Below the pieces are notes generated by a model. The model was not told the DNA's origin. It saw only the letters and a program-made list of their open reading frames with translations, and did no database searches. DNA of 64,000 nt, from NCBI GenBank assembly GCA_029379215.1, contig JAQYWO010000014.1, positions 416 to 64,415 on the forward strand. The letters run 5' to 3'. The translations under genes and the position numbers were made by a program. Shown here in pieces: positions 1,323-42,325 of this stretch; positions within the stretch are counted from its first letter, which is position 1, and the number at the start of each line of letters is the position of its first letter. Origin of the DNA: Rhizonema sp. PD37. GTDB taxonomy: Bacteria; Cyanobacteriota; Cyanobacteriia; Cyanobacteriales; Nostocaceae.

Positions 1323-4259
1323 CTACCGAACTTTGAATTGCCCGACACTTTCCTGCAATAATTGAGCCACTTGGCGCAATTGCTCAAACGACTCGGTGAC
1401 GTGATTTGCTTCTGCGGAAGTTTGATTGGCGATCAAGGCAATATTGTGCATAGTTTGGGTGACGATCTCGGAGGTTTGGGATTGAGAAATCGTTGCTTGA
1501 GAGATCGTAGTCACTAGTTGACTAATTTCAGAACTGACTGCTGTGATTTTATTCAAGCTTCGGCGAGTGACATCTATTAAATTCGTTCCCGTCACAACCT
1601 GCTCTGTTCCTGATTCTATCGCTGCAACTATCTCCCTGGTTTGTGCTTGAATGTTGAACACCAAGTGTCTGATTTCTTCTGTCGCTTCTGCGGATTGTCG
1701 TGCTAGGATGCGCACTTCATCGGCAATGATTGAAAAACCTCTTCCTTGCGATCCTACTCGCGATGCCTCCACCGAAGCATTGATTGCCAGAGTGTTGGTT
1801 CGAGTAGCAAAAGCATCAATTAAGTCAACGGCTTTAGAAATTTTTTGTGAAGACTCTCCAAGATATTTCACCTTCTTAGCTGTATCCGCAACAGTTAACC
1901 GGATTGCATGCATTCCATCCACTGTTTGGTTCATGACAGCATCTCCTTCTGCCACAGTTCGATCTGCTTCTTTCACTGCTTCTTCGGCGCGTACAGCATT
2001 GGCAGCAACTTCTCTTGCCTTGTTCGCCATTGCTGTCACCAGTGTTAAGGCAGTGCTGATTTCCTCTGCTTGCACTAATGCCTCTGTTGATAAAGATTGC
2101 ACTGAAATATCATTTGTGCTGGTTATCACAACAACTTGCGCGGTTGCTTTCTGCACCTGAAGCACAATTTTCCATAAGCTAGCTACAGTAGTATTGTAGA
2201 CATCCGCGAGCGTGCCAATTTCATCATCCGTCACCTTCGCCCAGATCGTCAAATCTCCTTGATTGATGGGGTCTACTTCTGCAAGCAGTTGTAATGCCCG
2301 TTTTTGCAGTCTTTCTTTAAGTTGACGCTGCTCTTCTGCTAGACGGAGCGTTCTCTCTAGCAATTCTACTCGATTGATCAAAAGCCCAAGCTCATGACCT
2401 AAGCGCTTGAGGAAATCGATCTCAGACTTGTGCCAATCGCGGGGACTAGAGCAGCTGTGAGCGATCAACAACCCGAAAAGTTCACCGCCACCAAGAATAG
2501 GAACGATCAAACTTGCTTTGACTTGTAATTGTTCAAGCAACTTGAGATGTTCGAGATGAAACCCTGCCAGGAAAATGTCATCTTCGACTAAAACTCGACC
2601 TTGTTGGTAGGCGTCACGAACTACTTGAGGAATGCAGGAATCATTGACATTAAGTTCAAGGGTACTTGGCAAGCCTGCCGCAACCGATTCTGAGATAACG
2701 CCTCCACTCGATTCTGCATTAAAGCGATAAATCACAAGCCGATCAAGTTGCAGGAGATTCCGGGTTCCCTCAAGAGTCCAATCAAAAATATCTTGAAGAT
2801 CCTGTGTCCGTATTGCCCCAGCCCCTTTTGCTGTCGTCAGCAACCGCTCTTGTTCTGCTTCAAACGCTTGTGCCTCTAAAAATTCCTGCAACTGTTCTGC
2901 CATCTGGTTGATGTTGCTTCCCAATGAAGCAATTTCATCTCTTCCCTGAAAGGATAGGCGAGTTCCCAACGCTCCTTGACCAATTTTTTCAACCGCTCTT
3001 ACCGCAGCTACAATTGGGCGAGTTGCTCGGTTCGCAAGAACTGCGGCGATCGCAGCTACCAATAAAGTGGTGATACTAGTTCCAACTGAGAGGATGAGCA
3101 GGTATTGTCGTTGCGTAGCGAAAGCAATGTCTGTATCGATAGAAACAATCGCCCGCCAATCAAGATAAGGCAACCCTCGAAGCGGCACAGGAGGACTGTA
3201 AATGAGCAGTTGCTCGGTCTTAGTTATTGAATTGTAGAAGATAGCAGTGCTGATTTCATGAACTGCCATAAGATGCTTAAAGAAAGGATAAATCTCTTCA
3301 GCAACAATTTTTTTGTATTCCTTTGGGCTATCCGTTGCTTCTGTATTTGAAGGCTCAAATGTGATCTCTCTTGTAGCTTCAGTAGAGCCTTTCGGACCCA
3401 GAAAAACTTCGTTATCAGCATTCATCAGGTAATACTGTGTCCCTTGAGTCCCATAATTTCGGAGTACCTCATCCAGAAATGCTATTGGAACACGCGCACG
3501 GATGAAACCAATAGGTCGATCTGTTTCTTTATCTTTGATAACGGAAGCGGAATAAAAACAAAAAACCTTTGAGCTTTCTGAAAGCTCTGGCTGGCTGATA
3601 CTCGTCGTTTCGTCATTGTTTAAAGCGGCTTGAATATAATTTTGGTCGAGCTGGTTGCCAAGTGCGGCTCCTGTAGTTTGAGCGACTACATTCCCCTGTA
3701 AATCAAAAATCGCAATGCTATCATAGATGCCATAGATATTCATTAAGCGCGTCAGAACTGCCACCTTATCTCGCTCTGTCGTGTGCGATCGCAACTCACG
3801 TTTGGTAAACACATCTAGGCTCGCCATAACCTGGATATTACTCAAGCATTGACGCATAAACAGGTTCGCTGTCTGTTGTAAGTCAACTACCCTCGCTTTG
3901 CCAAAAGCTTCCACTTGCTTGGTAATCGAGCGATTGGCAAAGTAATAGCCAGTTATCCCAATTGCCAACACTGGAATTGTACTCATCACAACTGCAACAG
4001 AGGTGACTTTTGCTCTCACATTAACGCCTTTCCACCAGCGAACTATCTTACCTTTAAGAGGCGTCTGTAAGTTGTCAGTTATCGGCTTGGTTCCGTCTAA
4101 CAGGAGCCGATGAGAAGTGAGACGAGATTGTAGAGGCTTTCTCAAATGAGGCGCTACAGCATCTACACAAGTTGCATGCATTGAATCAGTACTCTGCTCT
4201 TGAGCAGATTTGGAGGGTTGGTGTTCACTAGAATGAGACTTGAATGGCTTTTGAACCAT
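1323..4259 (-). CDS. methyl-accepting chemotaxis protein: TM, periplasmic sensor, TM, HAMP, cyanobacteriochrome-type GAF, MCP signalling domain
   Basis: C-terminal MCP signature (TNTLAINASVEASRVG..GRGFSIIADEVRILA). GAF block LDRLVIYRF...GGVISESV...QVKASLIVPI. Two hydrophobic segments. Start moved to MVQKPF (ATG 4259-4257); the upstream extension to 4451 looks non-coding. Confidence 0.9.
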   Translation of the reverse strand: MVQKPFKSHSSEHQPSKSAQEQSTDSMHATCVDAVAPHLRKPLQSRLTSHRLLLDGTKPITDNLQTPLKGKIVRWWKGVNVRAKVTSVAVVMSTIPVLAIGITGYYFANRSITKQVEAFGKARVVDLQQTANLFMRQCLSNIQVMASLDVFTKRELRSHTTERDKVAVLTRLMNIYGIYDSIAIFDLQGNVVAQTTGAALGNQLDQNYIQAALNNDETTSISQPELSESSKVFCFYSASVIKDKETDRPIGFIRARVPIAFLDEVLRNYGTQGTQYYLMNADNEVFLGPKGSTEATREITFEPSNTEATDSPKEYKKIVAEEIYPFFKHLMAVHEISTAIFYNSITKTEQLLIYSPPVPLRGLPYLDWRAIVSIDTDIAFATQRQYLLILSVGTSITTLLVAAIAAVLANRATRPIVAAVRAVEKIGQGALGTRLSFQGRDEIASLGSNINQMAEQLQEFLEAQAFEAEQERLLTTAKGAGAIRTQDLQDIFDWTLEGTRNLLQLDRLVIYRFNAESSGGVISESVAAGLPSTLELNVNDSCIPQVVRDAYQQGRVLVEDDIFLAGFHLEHLKLLEQLQVKASLIVPILGGGELFGLLIAHSCSSPRDWHKSEIDFLKRLGHELGLLINRVELLERTLRLAEEQRQLKERLQKRALQLLAEVDPINQGDLTIWAKVTDDEIGTLADVYNTTVASLWKIVLQVQKATAQVVVITSTNDISVQSLSTEALVQAEEISTALTLVTAMANKAREVAANAVRAEEAVKEADRTVAEGDAVMNQTVDGMHAIRLTVADTAKKVKYLGESSQKISKAVDLIDAFATRTNTLAINASVEASRVGSQGRGFSIIADEVRILARQSAEATEEIRHLVFNIQAQTREIVAAIESGTEQVVTGTNLIDVTRRSLNKITAVSSEISQLVTTISQATISQSQTSEIVTQTMHNIALIANQTSAEANHVTESFEQLRQVAQLLQESVGQFKVR

Positions 4260-4697
4260 AAAAATATATATGTATACCTGGTTACTTATTACCGGCGCAT
4301 GGCAGGCAAAATGGCAGAAACGTCCAAAATTGCTAATATCACATCGTTCGATTTTCGCCAATACCCGCAAAATTTGTGTTAATTGAGGATAAAGCGTCAA
4401 GTTTGAAGGGCTTTGAATGGCTTGCCACTCAAAGCCCTTGAATATCTTCAACTCGATTGACGACGAGCCCTAACGCCTGACTTTTCTACTGAGTCTGTAT
4501 GGATGGGCGATCTGCCACTTGCAACATGATCGTCTCATACACCGGAGGACTAGTATCCTGCTGGTATTCATTTAGTAGCTACAGCTTAGCAAGATACATT
4601 CACCTAAAACTCTCGGTAGATGTGGAAGCCCCGTAACTTTAGTTCGGGGATGAAACATGACACGTGCGATTTTAATCGCCGTGTACAAATCTGAGCA

Positions 4698-6026
4698 TCA
4701 AAAACCATAAGAGTAACCGTCTCTTTGATGAATAGATGAACAATATTTGTAACTAATTCCCGCCACTCTACCTTTTGGAGTAGAAATATCAAAACTACCA
4801 GTTGCACGGCACAAAACTCTACCAACATAAGTACCACCCTTTTTCCCTTTGGTGACAACAGCCTTGATGATGTCGCCAGTCTGGAAGCCAAAATGGATTT
4901 GTTGATGAGTGCGATAACGCTGTGGAAAACCATACTTATTAGTAGCGCACATTTGACGTTTCCCGTGCCCATTCGCTGTAATTAGCAGTGGTTTTATGCC
5001 TTTGATCATGAGAGTAGGAGTAGATTTACCTACACAAGCCGCATCAATCCAATGAGTTTTTTCCAGGTTTTGGGTAGTCCGATGAAACTTGGTTAACCCC
5101 GACGACCCTGTTTCTACAGGTAATCCAGTTGCCTTAAGCATTTCTAAGAGCTTAAATCTGGTTGCATTAACAGCCGCAGTATCAGCCAACGGTTTCTGAG
5201 CTTGCTGAGAAATCTTCTTCAACCTTTGTGGGTCTTTTTTTAGAAAATCTCTAATATCCATAGTCCCTTTTTTGATGTTGCAGTTCTCACAACTTAAAGT
5301 CAGATTAGCCAGCCGATTAGAACCTCCTTTCGCTCTTGGATGAATGTGTTCAATTTGCAAGGGAATCTCTTTCAGTCCGCAGTAAGCACATTGTCTCCCC
5401 CATTTCTCCAACAAATACTCGCGAGTTTCGTATCCTGCAAGAGTTCCCTGTTGGTATTCTTTTCCCTGGATTTTAGGGTTCTGCATTAATTGGGTGTCAA
5501 ACCTGACTAATTCTTGAGATATGGCAGTAATAGGGGCAAACTTGCACAACCTCTTAACCCACGTTTCAATATTATGAACACGACTCATCAAGCTTGGTGC
5601 TAACCACCCATCTCTACGTTGTTGAGGACATGGTTGCTTATTTCCCTTCCTAAACCATTCGTGTTTTGGCGGCTGTCGGTAACGGGTTTTGCGATTTCTT
5701 CGAGTTCGACGTAGTTGACGCCGTGATGTTAGAGAATCTCTGATAGCAAAACCGCGATGTTGCAGTTCTGCCGCCCATACAACTTCTCCACTGGCATCAT
5801 TAACAACAGCAATACCAGTTGTTCTTGAACCTGGGTCAATCTTAATTCTTAATGGTTCTACAACAGCATCTGGTTTTGACTCGACGAGGATAATTGTGAA
5901 CGGAAATTTGCGAAAGATTACGGCTTTTTTGTTTCTCAACAGTTGCCGCGCTTGGGCTGGATGAATTGGATTTTGGGGTCTTTTTTTGGTGTCGATTACT
6001 AGTGCTTTGCTCATAAGAGCCTCCAT
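4698..6026 (-). CDS. iscB: IscB RNA-guided endonuclease (PLMP-like N-terminus, split RuvC, RRXRR bridge helix, HNH, C-terminal beta-barrel)
   Basis: NPIHPAQARQLL..FPFTIIL (PLMP-like). IKIDPGSRTTGIAVV (RuvC-I). RRQLRRTRRNRKTRYR (Arg-rich helix). CAYCG...IEHIHPRAKGGSNRLANLTLSCENCNIKK (HNH). HWIDAACVG (RuvC-III). About 440 aa. All catalytic positions appear intact. The start may be the MSKALV Met at 6014. Confidence 0.85.
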   Translation of the reverse strand: MEALMSKALVIDTKKRPQNPIHPAQARQLLRNKKAVIFRKFPFTIILVESKPDAVVEPLRIKIDPGSRTTGIAVVNDASGEVVWAAELQHRGFAIRDSLTSRRQLRRTRRNRKTRYRQPPKHEWFRKGNKQPCPQQRRDGWLAPSLMSRVHNIETWVKRLCKFAPITAISQELVRFDTQLMQNPKIQGKEYQQGTLAGYETREYLLEKWGRQCAYCGLKEIPLQIEHIHPRAKGGSNRLANLTLSCENCNIKKGTMDIRDFLKKDPQRLKKISQQAQKPLADTAAVNATRFKLLEMLKATGLPVETGSSGLTKFHRTTQNLEKTHWIDAACVGKSTPTLMIKGIKPLLITANGHGKRQMCATNKYGFPQRYRTHQQIHFGFQTGDIIKAVVTKGKKGGTYVGRVLCRATGSFDISTPKGRVAGISYKYCSSIHQRDGYSYGF

Positions 6027-6370
6027 TACTGGGTAAAGTTTGCCTCGCTAATGTTATTGGTCGGTACTTTCCAAGCAGCACGGATTTAACTCTCTAATCT
6101 TTTTAACTACTCGGTTCTAGGGTTCATGGACTGGCACGCATCCAGAAGTAGGAATTTTAACACTTGCCAATAACGTAGTACTCGGGGTACTTAAGCTGGT
6201 CAACTATGCTTAAAGTCGTAAACATGAGCGCGAGGCTAGATGCTCCGTGTCTTTAGACCGGAGTCGTTGACACGATTAGACTAGAGTCTCCAACCATCCC
6301 TGATAAAGATAAATATTAAGATGCTTCTTTCAGATCTTGAGCGCTATAAAGATCTGTAGGCTCTAAGATG
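6027..6370 (-). ncRNA. candidate omega-RNA of IscB (scaffold immediately 5' of the iscB ORF; 5' end/guide position unknown)
   Basis: About 300 nt of non-coding, GC-balanced sequence sits directly upstream of iscB on the same strand. No credible ORF. In OMEGA systems the omega-RNA is encoded here. Assigned by position only. Confidence 0.4.
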
Positions 6371-6725
6371 CACTTTGTATAGGTTTAAACAGCAGTAGGA
6401 TTTATGATCGTGCATCAGATGTCTTTTGACAATAGAAATGTATCATACTTAACTAAATCTTTAGTTATACTTTACATAAAAAGAAAATAAATTAACTAAT
6501 TCACTCGGATTTCTGACCAGTTGAGGCAGAAACACAAATCAAACACTGTCAAAACATAGAATTTACCCGTCTCTTTTCAGCAATAGGGTTAGACGGAGGA
6601 GGTTTTAGCTTCAGCAAGCATGAATTTGCGTGTTGATCGGGAGCGTTAGGCAGATGGAAATCAACAATTCTGAATGCGATCGCTAAATTCATCAAGCAAA
6701 TAAGCACCTATTTTTTTGTAGACTA

Positions 6726-6768
6726 AAACCCCGGTCAGTATTTCCGTACTAACCGGGGTTTTGTTTTC
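6726..6768. terminator. intrinsic terminator-like hairpin, possibly bidirectional
   Basis: AAACCCCGGT (6726-6735) pairs with ACCGGGGTTT (6752-6761). It is followed by TTTTGTTTT on the + strand and TTTTAG on the - strand. Confidence 0.55.
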
Positions 6769-6832
6769 TAACAGTATTCTTTGTTGCCTTGGAAAACAAC
6801 ATTTCAGAATGTCAGCTGAATTTACAAAGAAA

Positions 6833-7090
6833 GGCAGAAAGCAGAAGGTTTGAAGTACTAATAAAAACTTTAGTTCTGGAGCCAGTGCGTTGCGCGGGTT
6901 CCCCGCGTTGAAGCATCTGGCGTGGTATAAAGCCCAGTAAAAAAAAAGAATTGTATCGAGACGCGTAGCGCGAGATACAAAGCGTCCAAGCTATGATCCC
7001 ACGTTTTTAAACGTGGGATCATAGCTGCCCTCTGCCTTCTCCTTCGGAGACGCTGCGCGAACGTACTTCTGCCTTCTGAATGCGATCGCA
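6833..7090. repeat. cluster of small dispersed palindromic repeats
   Basis: Perfect 17-bp-stem palindrome GCTATGATCCCACGTTT/AAACGTGGGATCATAGC (about 6990-7026). The unit cagtgcgttgcgcgggttccccgcgttgaagca (about 6883-6915) recurs inverted at about 58160-58192. The 73-aa ORF here is not credible. Confidence 0.6.
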
Positions 7091-7195
7091 CGGTACTTAA
7101 TTTATTGACGGAAATTTAAGTAATCAGAAACGAGAGTGATTACAAATACAAGTGGAATTGTTAGAGGTTTCGTTTTGGAGGCAGCGATCCGCGCA

Positions 7196-8722
7196 TCAAA
7201 TGTCTCCACTTGCAATCATCTGTATCATTTGCGGTACTCCAGGATCGAAGCCTGCAATATCGTAGGATAAAGGGTCTTTTGGATCTACCAGTGTGATTTG
7301 GTAAGGTGCAAGGGTGACATAAACTGCCTTGACTTCTGGATTCACCTTTTTGCGATACTCCGCCAGCGCTTGAGTTGGATGCTTGTAACCTGCCCAGCTT
7401 TCAGAGTCAGTCCAGCAGCAAACGACATCTGCTTTGAACTTGTTCTTAATCATCCAGTCATAAGTCACAGACGCATCTGTGCCGCCGAAGTTTTGATTGC
7501 TGGCTTTGCGAACCGCTGAATTAAAACTATCTTTGGCTGTGATTCCCAAGTCGCGGAATTCAGTACTAAACCCGCGAATCATGTAATTCTTCTCTGCTTT
7601 TGCTGTCACCAATGCCATTGTTGTGGCAATTTCACAACAGCTTAGTCCCATATCCGCAACTAAGGTACCCATAGAACCAGAAACATCTACGGCGTGCATA
7701 AAGACTTTGCCTGTAGGTTGGACGACATCAAAAGATAATTCAACCGCCTTTTCTAAGATGTCTACAATTCGGTTAACTGGATTCCAAGTTTTTTTACTGC
7801 GTCCTAAACTTCCACCTGATTGATAAGTCTTAAGGGCTTTTAAGACATTAATAGGGTGGATACGACCTTTACGCAGATGTTCTTTGTTATTAAGAACTGC
7901 TTCTACCCGCAGTAAATTGTCGCTTTCATCAGTTCGCAAAACACCCAGTTCAGTCAGCGAACCTAAGTTCCTGAGCAATGCACCAATTGGCATTTCTTGG
8001 AACAGCAACTGCCAAGCAGATTTGTCCATCTTGCCTATAGGTGCTGCCATTTCGTGAGTTAGGCGTCCTTGGGCAATGGCTTCTTGTGTCCGATCTGGAT
8101 TGCGTTTCAGCCACTCATACCACCAAATCTGTACCAAGGCCGTAGAAGGGATTTCTGATGGTAAGACAACCCATCCTTTAACAACCCATTCAAACAATTG
8201 TTGGTGTTCTACGGTTGGTGGTTTGATATGGAACAAACGCAAGGCGTCGCGACTGGAAAAGTTATGGCGTTGCTGGTACTTCAGCAACTGGTAAGCCAAA
8301 CCCTTAACGTCTTCTCGTAAAAACCAGTTTTTCCCTGCTTCGCGTACAACTTTACCAAATCCGCGCATGGACTTGGTGTAGCTCAACCACTCGTAAAAAT
8401 GGCTACCCGTGCGAATGACTTTGGGGAAGATTTCCGCAAATGCCTTTTTGGCTTCTGGTGCTTCACCCATCGACAGCAAGACTAACGCCAGGATCGGCGC
8501 ACTGTTATTAATGGCACGTCCATCGCTAGCATACAGGATTTCATCGGCTACAAGTTGGGGATTTTCGGCGATCGCCTGTCTGACAACCATGACAAAATCC
8601 TCAGTTAACTCCTGCTTTCCTGCATAGTAAGTGCTTTGTGCCGTGCCAATCAGCAAACAGCGTCGCAGCATTTGCCTTCTCCCAGCATCAAACATCCAAC
8701 CGCCAGAACGTCCCTGGATCAT
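7196..8722 (-). CDS. rsr: Ro60-related protein Rsr (TROVE domain + vWA domain)
   Basis: 508 aa. TROVE-like N-terminal part. C-terminal vWA with MIDAS motif (HAVDVSGSM...GGTD). tRNA-like RNAs lie directly upstream, as at other bacterial rsr loci. Confidence 0.85.
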   Translation of the reverse strand: MIQGRSGGWMFDAGRRQMLRRCLLIGTAQSTYYAGKQELTEDFVMVVRQAIAENPQLVADEILYASDGRAINNSAPILALVLLSMGEAPEAKKAFAEIFPKVIRTGSHFYEWLSYTKSMRGFGKVVREAGKNWFLREDVKGLAYQLLKYQQRHNFSSRDALRLFHIKPPTVEHQQLFEWVVKGWVVLPSEIPSTALVQIWWYEWLKRNPDRTQEAIAQGRLTHEMAAPIGKMDKSAWQLLFQEMPIGALLRNLGSLTELGVLRTDESDNLLRVEAVLNNKEHLRKGRIHPINVLKALKTYQSGGSLGRSKKTWNPVNRIVDILEKAVELSFDVVQPTGKVFMHAVDVSGSMGTLVADMGLSCCEIATTMALVTAKAEKNYMIRGFSTEFRDLGITAKDSFNSAVRKASNQNFGGTDASVTYDWMIKNKFKADVVCCWTDSESWAGYKHPTQALAEYRKKVNPEVKAVYVTLAPYQITLVDPKDPLSYDIAGFDPGVPQMIQMIASGDI

Positions 8723-40484: not shown

Positions 40485-40650
40485 TCTGAGACTTTTTAAC
40501 CTGCTGTAAATCTACCAAAAGTTGATTCACGAAAGTTTCACCATCAATTCCTTCGCCACGCTCAAGTGATACTATCCCTTCATCAATCTTGGCGCGAGTT
40601 TCGTCAACCCATACTTGACTCTTTTCTGTTTCCAACGCCACTTTTCTAAG
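40481..40650 (-). pseudogene. ParD-family antitoxin remnant (C-terminal half only)
   Basis: My translation: ...ALETEKSQVWVDETRAKIDEGIVSLERGEGIDGETFVNQLLVDLQQVKKSQK*. An upstream in-frame TAG removes the RHH N-terminus. The truncation point abuts the 19-bp repeat at 40665. Confidence 0.55.
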
Positions 40651-40664
40651 CTATGACTGAGTAT

Positions 40665-40683
40665 AACGTGCAAATCGTTTCCA
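40665..40683 (+). repeat. 19-bp direct repeat, copy 1 (AACGTGCAAATCGTTTCCA)
   Basis: Identical to 44190-44208. The flanks are unrelated. Confidence 0.9.
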
Positions 40684-40719
40684 GCTCACAGAAATTGATT
40701 TCTAAATAGGAGCAAGAGC

Positions 40720-41109
40720 ATGAGTAACTTTTACGAACTGATTCAGAAGATGAAGAAAAGAGCTTCCATGTATCTGGGTAAACCCGCAATCACTAACCTC
40801 CGTTCCTGTTTAGCTGGTTACATTCTTGCTCGTCTTGAACTAGGAATTTCTCAGACTGAACAAGAAAAGAACTTTACGGAATTCCAAGGATGGATTCAGA
40901 AAAAATTTAACATCACCTCCAGCCAATCCTGGGATAAAGTCATTCTCTTCTATTCAGAAGATGAACGCACGGAGCTAGAGCGTTTCTTTGAGTTATTTGA
41001 AGAGTTTGTAAGCCCTGATAACAAAACTAAGCTTAAATCACAAGATTCTCTATTAGAATCTTCGTCCGACTTTTTGCTGGGTAAACTCTTAAGTTCAACG
41101 AACTCTTAA
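40720..41109 (+). CDS. hypothetical protein (129 aa)
   Basis: GGAG 8 nt upstream of the ATG. No recognisable motif. Confidence 0.5.
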   Translation: MSNFYELIQKMKKRASMYLGKPAITNLRSCLAGYILARLELGISQTEQEKNFTEFQGWIQKKFNITSSQSWDKVILFYSEDERTELERFFELFEEFVSPDNKTKLKSQDSLLESSSDFLLGKLLSSTNS

Positions 41110-41170
41110 GAACTGCTCTGATAATTTTATTCAAAGCGCAAGTCTATTCTACAATTCACATTTATGACTT

Positions 41171-42325
41171 CTAGTTCAATCCAGAACTGTACTGTTTATT
41201 GAGTTTAATTCCAGGGGCATAACTGACTGCCTCAATACGTTTGAGCTTTTTGTGCAACTGCTTATATCGTGCTGTTGCTCCTTGTTTTGCGTAGAGAGTC
41301 GCGGCCTCCCGATCATCTTTAATTGCTCCTTGTTTGTCTCTTAACTCGCAGCGAGCAATAGCGCGAATCATGTAGGCATCAGCCAAGTTAGGAGCGAGCT
41401 CAATAACGTGTGTATAATCTTCGATTGCTGCCTTATAATCTTTTAGAAAATAGTGGGCATCAGCAAGTCCTTTGTATGCATCAGTATAGTTTCGATCAAT
41501 TTTAATAGCTTGAGTGTAGTCTTTAACTGCTTTTAGATATTCGCTATTTACACTTTTTTTCTTTCCCTGATTAAAGAAGCTTTTTGCTTGATTTTTTTGA
41601 GAGTTCCTTTTTTCAATTTTTTGCTCTCCCTGATTAAAGGTGCTTTCTGCTTTGTGTTTTTGAGCAAAGTTATTAAATCCTAAAACTCCAGCAACAACTA
41701 AAACACTAGCCGCAATAAGAACTGAGCGAGTGGATATGTTTGGAGAGCGAATAATTTTCTGAAAGAATTGGTTATAAATGAAACTGTTAATAGGTGTAAA
41801 AATTGCAGCTTGTTTTGCTATAGTAAACTGTGTCTGCTTTTGCTCTTGTTCCAATTTCTCAATTTCTTCTCTAATGCCTTGAGCAATATCTACAAATGCT
41901 AGATTGTGGGTTATCCAAACTCTTCTGTTATCTACAGGTTCGCCATTGCTAGGCAAAGGTTTTAAGTCTCTAAACGGTGTAGCCTCCCAGTTATCAATTT
42001 GGCGGAGTTTAACAGGGATAACAAGGGATTTTTCACGATCGTGCAGTTTCATAGCCTGCTCTCCAATCTTCCAGCCATCAACCGAATTCATAAAATCTTT
42101 ACTAACTAGCAGAACAATTACGCGAGATGTCTTCAGGTGTCGGTAATTTTCCTGCTTCCAGTTACTTCCCGCAACCGTTTGACATTTATACCAGTTGATC
42201 CTCAATCCATTATTTCGTTTCAAATTGAAGAGTTGTGCGTCTAAATTTGCACGCATGTTTTCGTCTTTTTGGGAGTAGAAAAAGGAAATAGTAATAACTC
42301 TGCTAAATATCGGAAAGACAGACAT
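41171..42325 (-). CDS. TIR domain - TM helix - TPR repeat protein
   Basis: N-terminal TIR_2-like block (ISFFYSQKDE...VIVLLVSKDFMNSVDGWKIGEQA...VIPV). Hydrophobic SVLIAASVLVVAGVLGF. C-terminal TPR units (YTQAIKIDRNYTDAYKGLADAHYFLKDYKAAIEDYTHVIEL...). Confidence 0.75.
   Translation of the reverse strand: MSVFPIFSRVITISFFYSQKDENMRANLDAQLFNLKRNNGLRINWYKCQTVAGSNWKQENYRHLKTSRVIVLLVSKDFMNSVDGWKIGEQAMKLHDREKSLVIPVKLRQIDNWEATPFRDLKPLPSNGEPVDNRRVWITHNLAFVDIAQGIREEIEKLEQEQKQTQFTIAKQAAIFTPINSFIYNQFFQKIIRSPNISTRSVLIAASVLVVAGVLGFNNFAQKHKAESTFNQGEQKIEKRNSQKNQAKSFFNQGKKKSVNSEYLKAVKDYTQAIKIDRNYTDAYKGLADAHYFLKDYKAAIEDYTHVIELAPNLADAYMIRAIARCELRDKQGAIKDDREAATLYAKQGATARYKQLHKKLKRIEAVSYAPGIKLNKQYSSGLN

Follow-up and report, generated by a model that had tools for sequence, protein, structure and literature searches.

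An iscB-like gene separates rsr from a chemoreceptor gene in Rhizonema sp. PD37, and the question that this locus raises is whether the nuclease gene has been taken over by the host or is the cargo of an element that is mobilised in trans. The earlier note, made on the window (the whole 64,000-nucleotide stretch of contig JAQYWO010000014.1 that was analysed), had left the choice between these two readings. The best explanation, to which we give a probability of about 0.9, is that positions 4604..6271 are a 1,668-bp non-autonomous insertion sequence of the IS200/IS605 superfamily (ISC), containing an intact IscB and its omega (HEARO) RNA. IscB is the nuclease from which Cas9 descends. The parts of the element, together with its upstream host neighbour, are the following:

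4604..6271, minus strand: non-autonomous IscB/omega-RNA IS200/IS605 (ISC) element, 1,668 bp, +/-2 nt, delimited by empty sites
4698..6014, minus strand: iscB coding sequence, 438 aa plus stop, the start being chosen by ribosome-binding site, relatives' alignment and database gene call
6033..6271, minus strand: omega RNA scaffold (HEARO RNA, Rfam RF02033), which doubles as the right end (RE) of the transposon, in transposase terms
6272..~6291, minus strand: predicted omega-RNA guide, host flank directly 5' of the scaffold, 5'-GGAGACTCTAGTCTAATCGT-3'
7196..8722, minus strand: rsr, upstream of the element and co-oriented with iscB

The minus-strand open reading frame at 4698..6026 was confirmed, with 442 aa when counted from its first ATG, although this start, the one first proposed, is probably four codons too early. 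Two in-frame codons are available: the ATG at 6026, which gives 442 aa, and a second one at 6014, which yields 438 aa and has a GGAGG 5 nt upstream. Since the first ATG itself falls within a Shine-Dalgarno-like GGAGG, all the relatives in the alignment start at MSK, equivalent to the second ATG, and the database gene call for this protein is 438 aa long, the start is most likely at 6014 and the coding sequence 4698..6014. The protein matches the Pfam families RRXRR (PF14239, E 7.8e-63) and HNH (PF01844), and it scores 420.2 bits against the NCBIfam equivalog NF040563, ‘RNA-guided endonuclease IscB’, over profile positions 2–314 of 314, where the curated cut-off is 175 bits. Its identification as IscB is upheld by these matches. 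The split RuvC domain, the arginine-rich bridge helix and the inserted HNH domain are all present, and the best relatives of solved structure are IscB proteins: TbaIscB (9k30), OgeuIscB (7xht/7utn) and others. In the alignment to OgeuIscB (7xht), residues D60, E168 and H223 (438-aa numbering) correspond to D61, E193 and H247, the segment THWIDAA (H321, D324) lies opposite the H..D motif of RuvC-III, and the four zinc cysteines of the HNH domain are all kept (CAYC and CENC). The aligned OgeuIscB positions are those that the OgeuIscB literature gives as catalytic. On this alignment, all the catalytic positions of RuvC and HNH are apparently present, in agreement with the earlier claim that none had been lost, and the protein is predicted to be an apparently intact RNA-guided nuclease. 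The assignment of catalytic positions also draws on the published dIscB mutant, D58A/H209A/H210A (10.1101/2023.03.14.532601). Values of dN/dS between 0.08 and 0.14, obtained against relatives at 71–82% amino-acid identity, indicate strong purifying selection on iscB at the level of the family. Among the protein matches listed, from at least 8,000 candidates, the top ones are 72–82% identical and come from Nostocales such as Scytonema, Rhizonema, Aetokthonos, Calothrix and Nodularia; many of the named homologues listed (72–80% identity, Nostocales) are already annotated as ‘RNA-guided endonuclease IscB’.

The roughly 300 nt free of open reading frames upstream of the gene had been pointed out as the probable source of an omega RNA, to be checked with covariance models. 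When the region 4000–7200 was scanned against Rfam at a permissive threshold, one strong match was obtained in that stretch: a HEARO RNA (RF02033) at 6033..6271 on the minus strand, with 125.1 bits (gathering score 83) and E 8.9e-27, spanning model positions 1–211 of 211. HEARO is the RNA now named IscB omega RNA (10.1101/2023.03.14.532601). It lies on the same strand as iscB and stops 19 nt short of the ATG at 6014; its first model base coincides with the first base of the element. The evidence for the omega RNA is this covariance-model match and not a minimum free energy fold, which for the single sequence gave a z of -1.4, without significance alone.

As no base of the element precedes the scaffold, the guide is taken from flanking host DNA. 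The functional guide is likely the last 16 nt of 6272..6291, a length taken from published IscB work. Both the 16-mer and the 20-mer are found once in the bacterium's own genome, at the window site; no other match with fewer than two mismatches in 16 nt is present in that genome, and none of the near-matches there is followed by GTGAA. This uniqueness is consistent with a function directed purely at the element's own site. Relatives in other genomes and paralogues in the same genome start with GTCARC, followed by a common hairpin, and the sequence upstream of them is unrelated, as expected for guides derived from the flank. A separate observation is that AGTCTAAT is common to the 5' flanks of the window element (6275–6282) and of the iscB copy at G000:C458 (upstream of 59872), 3–4 nt before the element start in each; it may be coincidental or point to a weak preference that extends past the TAM.

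The limits of the element were expected by the earlier note to come from other copies in the genome. This did not work out: no other near-identical copy is present in the genome (9.1 Mb, 537 contigs), whose paralogues are ~68–70% identical, so the ends were taken from empty sites and not from repeats. Four same-genus genomes were searched for the chemoreceptor-rsr locus, and three of them (G004, G002 and G001) contain it without the insert; in each, on one contig and in colinear order, the match to window 6600..6267 joins directly to the match to 4603..4300. The G004 contig also includes more distant flanks. On the iscB strand, with a slash at each junction, the occupied site reads ...GGAGACTCTAGTCTAATCGT/GTCAACGACTCC...GAGAGTTTTAG/GTGAATGTATC... 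and the G004 empty site reads ...GGAGACTCTAGTCTAATCGTGTGAATGTATC.... GT is present at both junctions and the boundary is therefore uncertain by 2 nt; the same ambiguity, N/RTGA versus GT/GA, has been discussed for ISC transposons, whose termini begin with 5'-GTCA and for which GT/GA and N/ATGA target sites are described (PMC4810608). No target-site duplication is found when the occupied site is compared with the three empty ones, and terminal inverted repeats are absent, the termini GTCAACGAC... and ...GAGTTTTAG not being inverted repeats of each other. The nearest congener copies of the element are 82–89% identical, which, together with the lack of a near-identical sibling, means that no very recent transposition is documented.

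Both ends carry the structures listed here, and the left end (LE) is flanked by the target site:

6243..6263, minus strand: subterminal hairpin of the RE/omega-RNA end, CTCCGGTCTAAAGACACGGAG, with the end motif after it (from folding)
4629..4649, minus strand: subterminal hairpin of the iscB-distal end (LE in transposase terms), CCCCGAACTAAAGTTACGGGG, separated from the boundary by 25 nt
4660..4684, minus strand: second conserved hairpin, just past the iscB stop, CACGGCGATTAAAATCGCACGTG (from folding)
4599..4603, plus strand: TAM/target site, TTCAC on the plus strand and GTGAA on the iscB strand, host DNA abutting LE

The hairpins at 4629–4649 and 6243–6263 share one design, in which stems of 5 and 3 bp combine with a TAAA loop and a bulged A. 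A set of 12 hairpins of this design, taken from various copies and from either end, was picked by hand, which favours the structure; in this set 96.9% of cells pair and six of the eight pairs show compensatory changes, a covariation score that none of 500 shuffles reached. The 4660–4684 hairpin also shows compensatory differences, in copies C409, C155, G026 and C458. It corresponds to the hairpin that had been placed at 4655–4680 as a possible end structure; it is real and inside the element, but the one at 4629–4649 is closer to the end. The other end structure suggested at first, a hairpin at 6332–6358, was rejected: it folds weakly (-5.5 kcal/mol) and lies 60–90 nt outside the element, in host flank that the empty sites retain.

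The RE terminates on the plus strand as ...TCGTTGAC/, where the last five bases, TTGAC at 6267–6271, are the TEM. The TAM (GTGAA) and the TEM (GTCAA) are different in one base, i.e., TTCAC/ versus TTGAC/ on the plus strand, and the G004 empty site is the guide followed by GTGAATG. Next to the LE end, 10 family copies at different insertion sites have R-TGA-W, which is W-TCA-Y in the transposase sense, and their iscB-distal ends have in common the two hairpins and a ...TTTAG terminus. Several paralogues have TTCAT where the window copy has TTCAC; TTCAT is the TAM shown experimentally for GstIscB, and the near-identity of TAM and TEM fits the relation reported for ISGst elements (10.1101/2023.03.14.532601). 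Avoidance of self-cutting would rest on this single base or on something not visible here.

The absence of a neighbouring TnpA, as first noted, holds for the whole contig, on which no match to the Y1 transposase family (PF01797) was found. A missing adjacent tnpA is the norm, since tnpA adjoins only ~1.5% of iscB genes (10.1101/2023.03.14.532601). Outside this contig, the genome has 11 PF01797 (Y1_Tnp) matches, at least five of them intact open reading frames; the intact genes include those of C282, C526, C66 and C502, and that of C86 if its stop is taken as an error. The genome as a whole also has six full-length iscB genes and eight HEARO RNAs above the cut-off, and trans-mobilisation of the window element by one of these Y1 transposases is plausible. 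An autonomous-looking IS605 at G000:C282:~40600–41795 (minus strand), with tnpA followed by tnpB and a TAM of TTTAC, has an LE laid out as in the window element (GCCCC...GGGGATGAA and a second hairpin; nhmmer E 0.007 against the LE profile built here), and the RE hairpin of the IS605 element of C60 follows the TAAA-loop design. Both resemblances are weak, and no helper TnpA was assigned by end similarity.

Several partial or reduced relatives were also recorded. Two gene-less mini-elements, G000:C208:3575–4064 (plus strand) and G000:C55:16569–17152 (minus strand), contain a full HEARO RNA (139 and 102 bits, respectively), a short spacer and LE hairpins, without iscB. The C208 mini-element ends at ...CTTTAG/ATGAAACAC, so that the start codon of an ACT-domain (ilvH/ilvN-like) open reading frame shares bases with its ATGAA target motif. 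A HEARO RNA remnant at G000:C458:45528–45668 (minus strand), which keeps the initial ~100 nt of the RNA, matches the window element at 97% and 91% identity, nearer to it than any intact paralogue; a GC-rich palindrome (AAGTCTGCCGGGGGA...), similar in type to one inside the C208 mini-element, interrupts the remnant. Solo or partial iscB-distal ends, with the two hairpins and TTTTAG/GTGAAT, are present at G000:C192:6013–6096, C155:6249–6333 and C409:28815–28897; the C192 one is 91% identical to window 4598–4664, and the C409 one comes after an IscB/IsrB-like C-terminus. The nearest congener copies are at other loci: G002:C394:2181–3680 (89% nucleotide identity, the same GTCAAC start, a different flank and a broken open reading frame) and G004:C97:20437–21833 (82%, an intact 438-aa open reading frame, the omega RNA lacking its first ~94 nt).

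Regarding the host context, the co-orientation of rsr with the element is the arrangement that Meers et al. (10.1101/2023.03.14.532601) report as preferred, since a transcript that includes the guide has to begin in the flank. On the other side, iscB is co-directional with the chemoreceptor gene and lies ~170–350 nt upstream of it. A promoter scan of 4300–7250 gave two promoter-like sites, none above chance, versus a mean of 5.6 in shuffled sequence. A strong GC-rich hairpin (AAAACCCCGGT...ACCGGGGTTTT) at ~6725–6765 separates rsr from the guide, which lies ~450 nt further downstream; the hairpin is flanked by T and A runs and looks like a bidirectional terminator downstream of rsr.

A mechanism for the maintenance of the element can be proposed by analogy with published work on GstIscB and IS608 (10.1101/2023.03.14.532601). 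A Y1 TnpA supplied from another locus of the genome would bind the hairpins on single-stranded DNA and would seamlessly excise or insert the element (‘peel and paste’). Transcription from the host flank would enter the element and yield an omega RNA whose 5' ~16 nt match that flank. The donor joint left by excision, or an element-free sister chromosome, would read ACTCTAGTCTAATCGT followed by GTGAAT, which is a guide match plus a TAM; IscB with its omega RNA would cut this joint, and recombinational repair from the occupied sister copy would restore the element. The occupied site would present the guide match followed by GTCAA, not GTGAA.

Two other readings have to be weighed against the mobile, homing element. 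The copy may be structurally intact and yet neither mobile nor homing any longer, persisting only as a young or neutral insertion, for example if no guide-bearing omega RNA is transcribed or if no compatible TnpA is left. The terminator-like hairpin upstream and the lack of a convincing promoter in 4300–7250 would agree with such a fossil, as would the single copy without a near-identical sibling and the decay of close relatives (the broken open reading frame of G002:C394, the ~94 nt missing from the omega RNA of G004:C97 and the C458:45528–45668 remnant). We nevertheless consider this explanation unlikely, given the intact open reading frame, the complete set of catalytic residues, the full-length HEARO match, the two intact end hairpins and the strong purifying selection on the IscB family.

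That the host retains the nuclease for a cellular role, such as regulation of the chemoreceptor gene or defence, and not for transposon maintenance, appears highly improbable. The position of iscB, co-directional and ~170–350 nt upstream of the chemoreceptor gene with no adjacent tnpA, could suggest it, but the locus is empty in all three of the same-genus genomes that have it, so iscB is not a conserved host feature there; the transposon ends are intact and, within its own genome, the guide matches only its own insertion site. Moreover, this protein keeps its catalytic residues, unlike the domesticated relatives that are known to be nuclease-dead. Hence, of the two possibilities first offered, the domesticated copy is disfavoured and the trans-mobilisable one favoured, because the locus is empty in three congeners, the end hairpins are typical of the family and relatives are found elsewhere with unrelated 5' flanks.

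The trans-mobilisable element is an ordinary member of the well-described ISC / IscB-omega RNA kind, although its sequence is new. Three known systems come closest to it. The GstIscB element (ISGst family, Geobacillus stearothermophilus; 10.1101/2023.03.14.532601) is likewise a non-autonomous IS200/IS605 element with iscB alone, in which a HEARO-type scaffold forms the RE, the guide is encoded outside the boundary and the TAM lies beside LE. TAM and TEM are nearly identical in both, the TAM being TTCAT for GstIscB and TTCAC in the window (TTCAT at several paralogues), and both have a co-oriented upstream host gene and gene-less PATE-like derivatives in the same genome. They differ in that the window host belongs to another phylum, as a filamentous cyanobacterium, in that the proteins match at family level only, and in that the element described here is known from sequence. 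ISC transposons (PMC4810608), such as the cyanobacterial ISC1-1_MA, also encode IscB only, are 1.3–1.7 kb long, have a 5'-GTCA terminus and produce no duplication, with sites N/ATGA or GT/GA there and N/GTGA or GT/GA here; their subterminal hairpins also occur in IS605 elements of the genome that carries them. The window element, a new family member, is a single copy, whereas ISC1-1_MA is present in four copies at ~97% identity. With the OgeuIscB-omega RNA complex (PDB 7xht, 7utn, 8csz), the window protein shares the order PLMP, RuvC-I, bridge helix, RuvC-II, HNH, RuvC-III and C-terminal domain, and the same catalytic residues, although the similarity is local only (E ~5e-20, 75 bits) and the lengths are different (438 versus 496 aa). 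The TAM given for OgeuIscB in PMC12660989 is NWRRNA, versus TTCAC for the window element.

The discovery value of the locus is small, since IscB/omega-RNA elements are well described and Nostocales homologues have already been annotated. Its practical value is that the natural empty sites in three congeners allow the guide, the target and the TAM (guide plus GTGAAT) to be stated to the base, which makes it a clean substrate on which to test homing or to characterise one more compact nuclease with a TTCAY-type TAM. More tentatively, and on balance doubtfully, the six full-length IscB paralogues and the gene-less HEARO mini-elements (e.g., C208 and C55) might form a trans-acting network. Such a network has already been proposed for PATEs (Meers et al., 10.1101/2023.03.14.532601). 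If it existed for cyanobacterial IscB, orphan omega RNAs would borrow IscB proteins to defend their own sites, and the window copy would be one of the protein donors.
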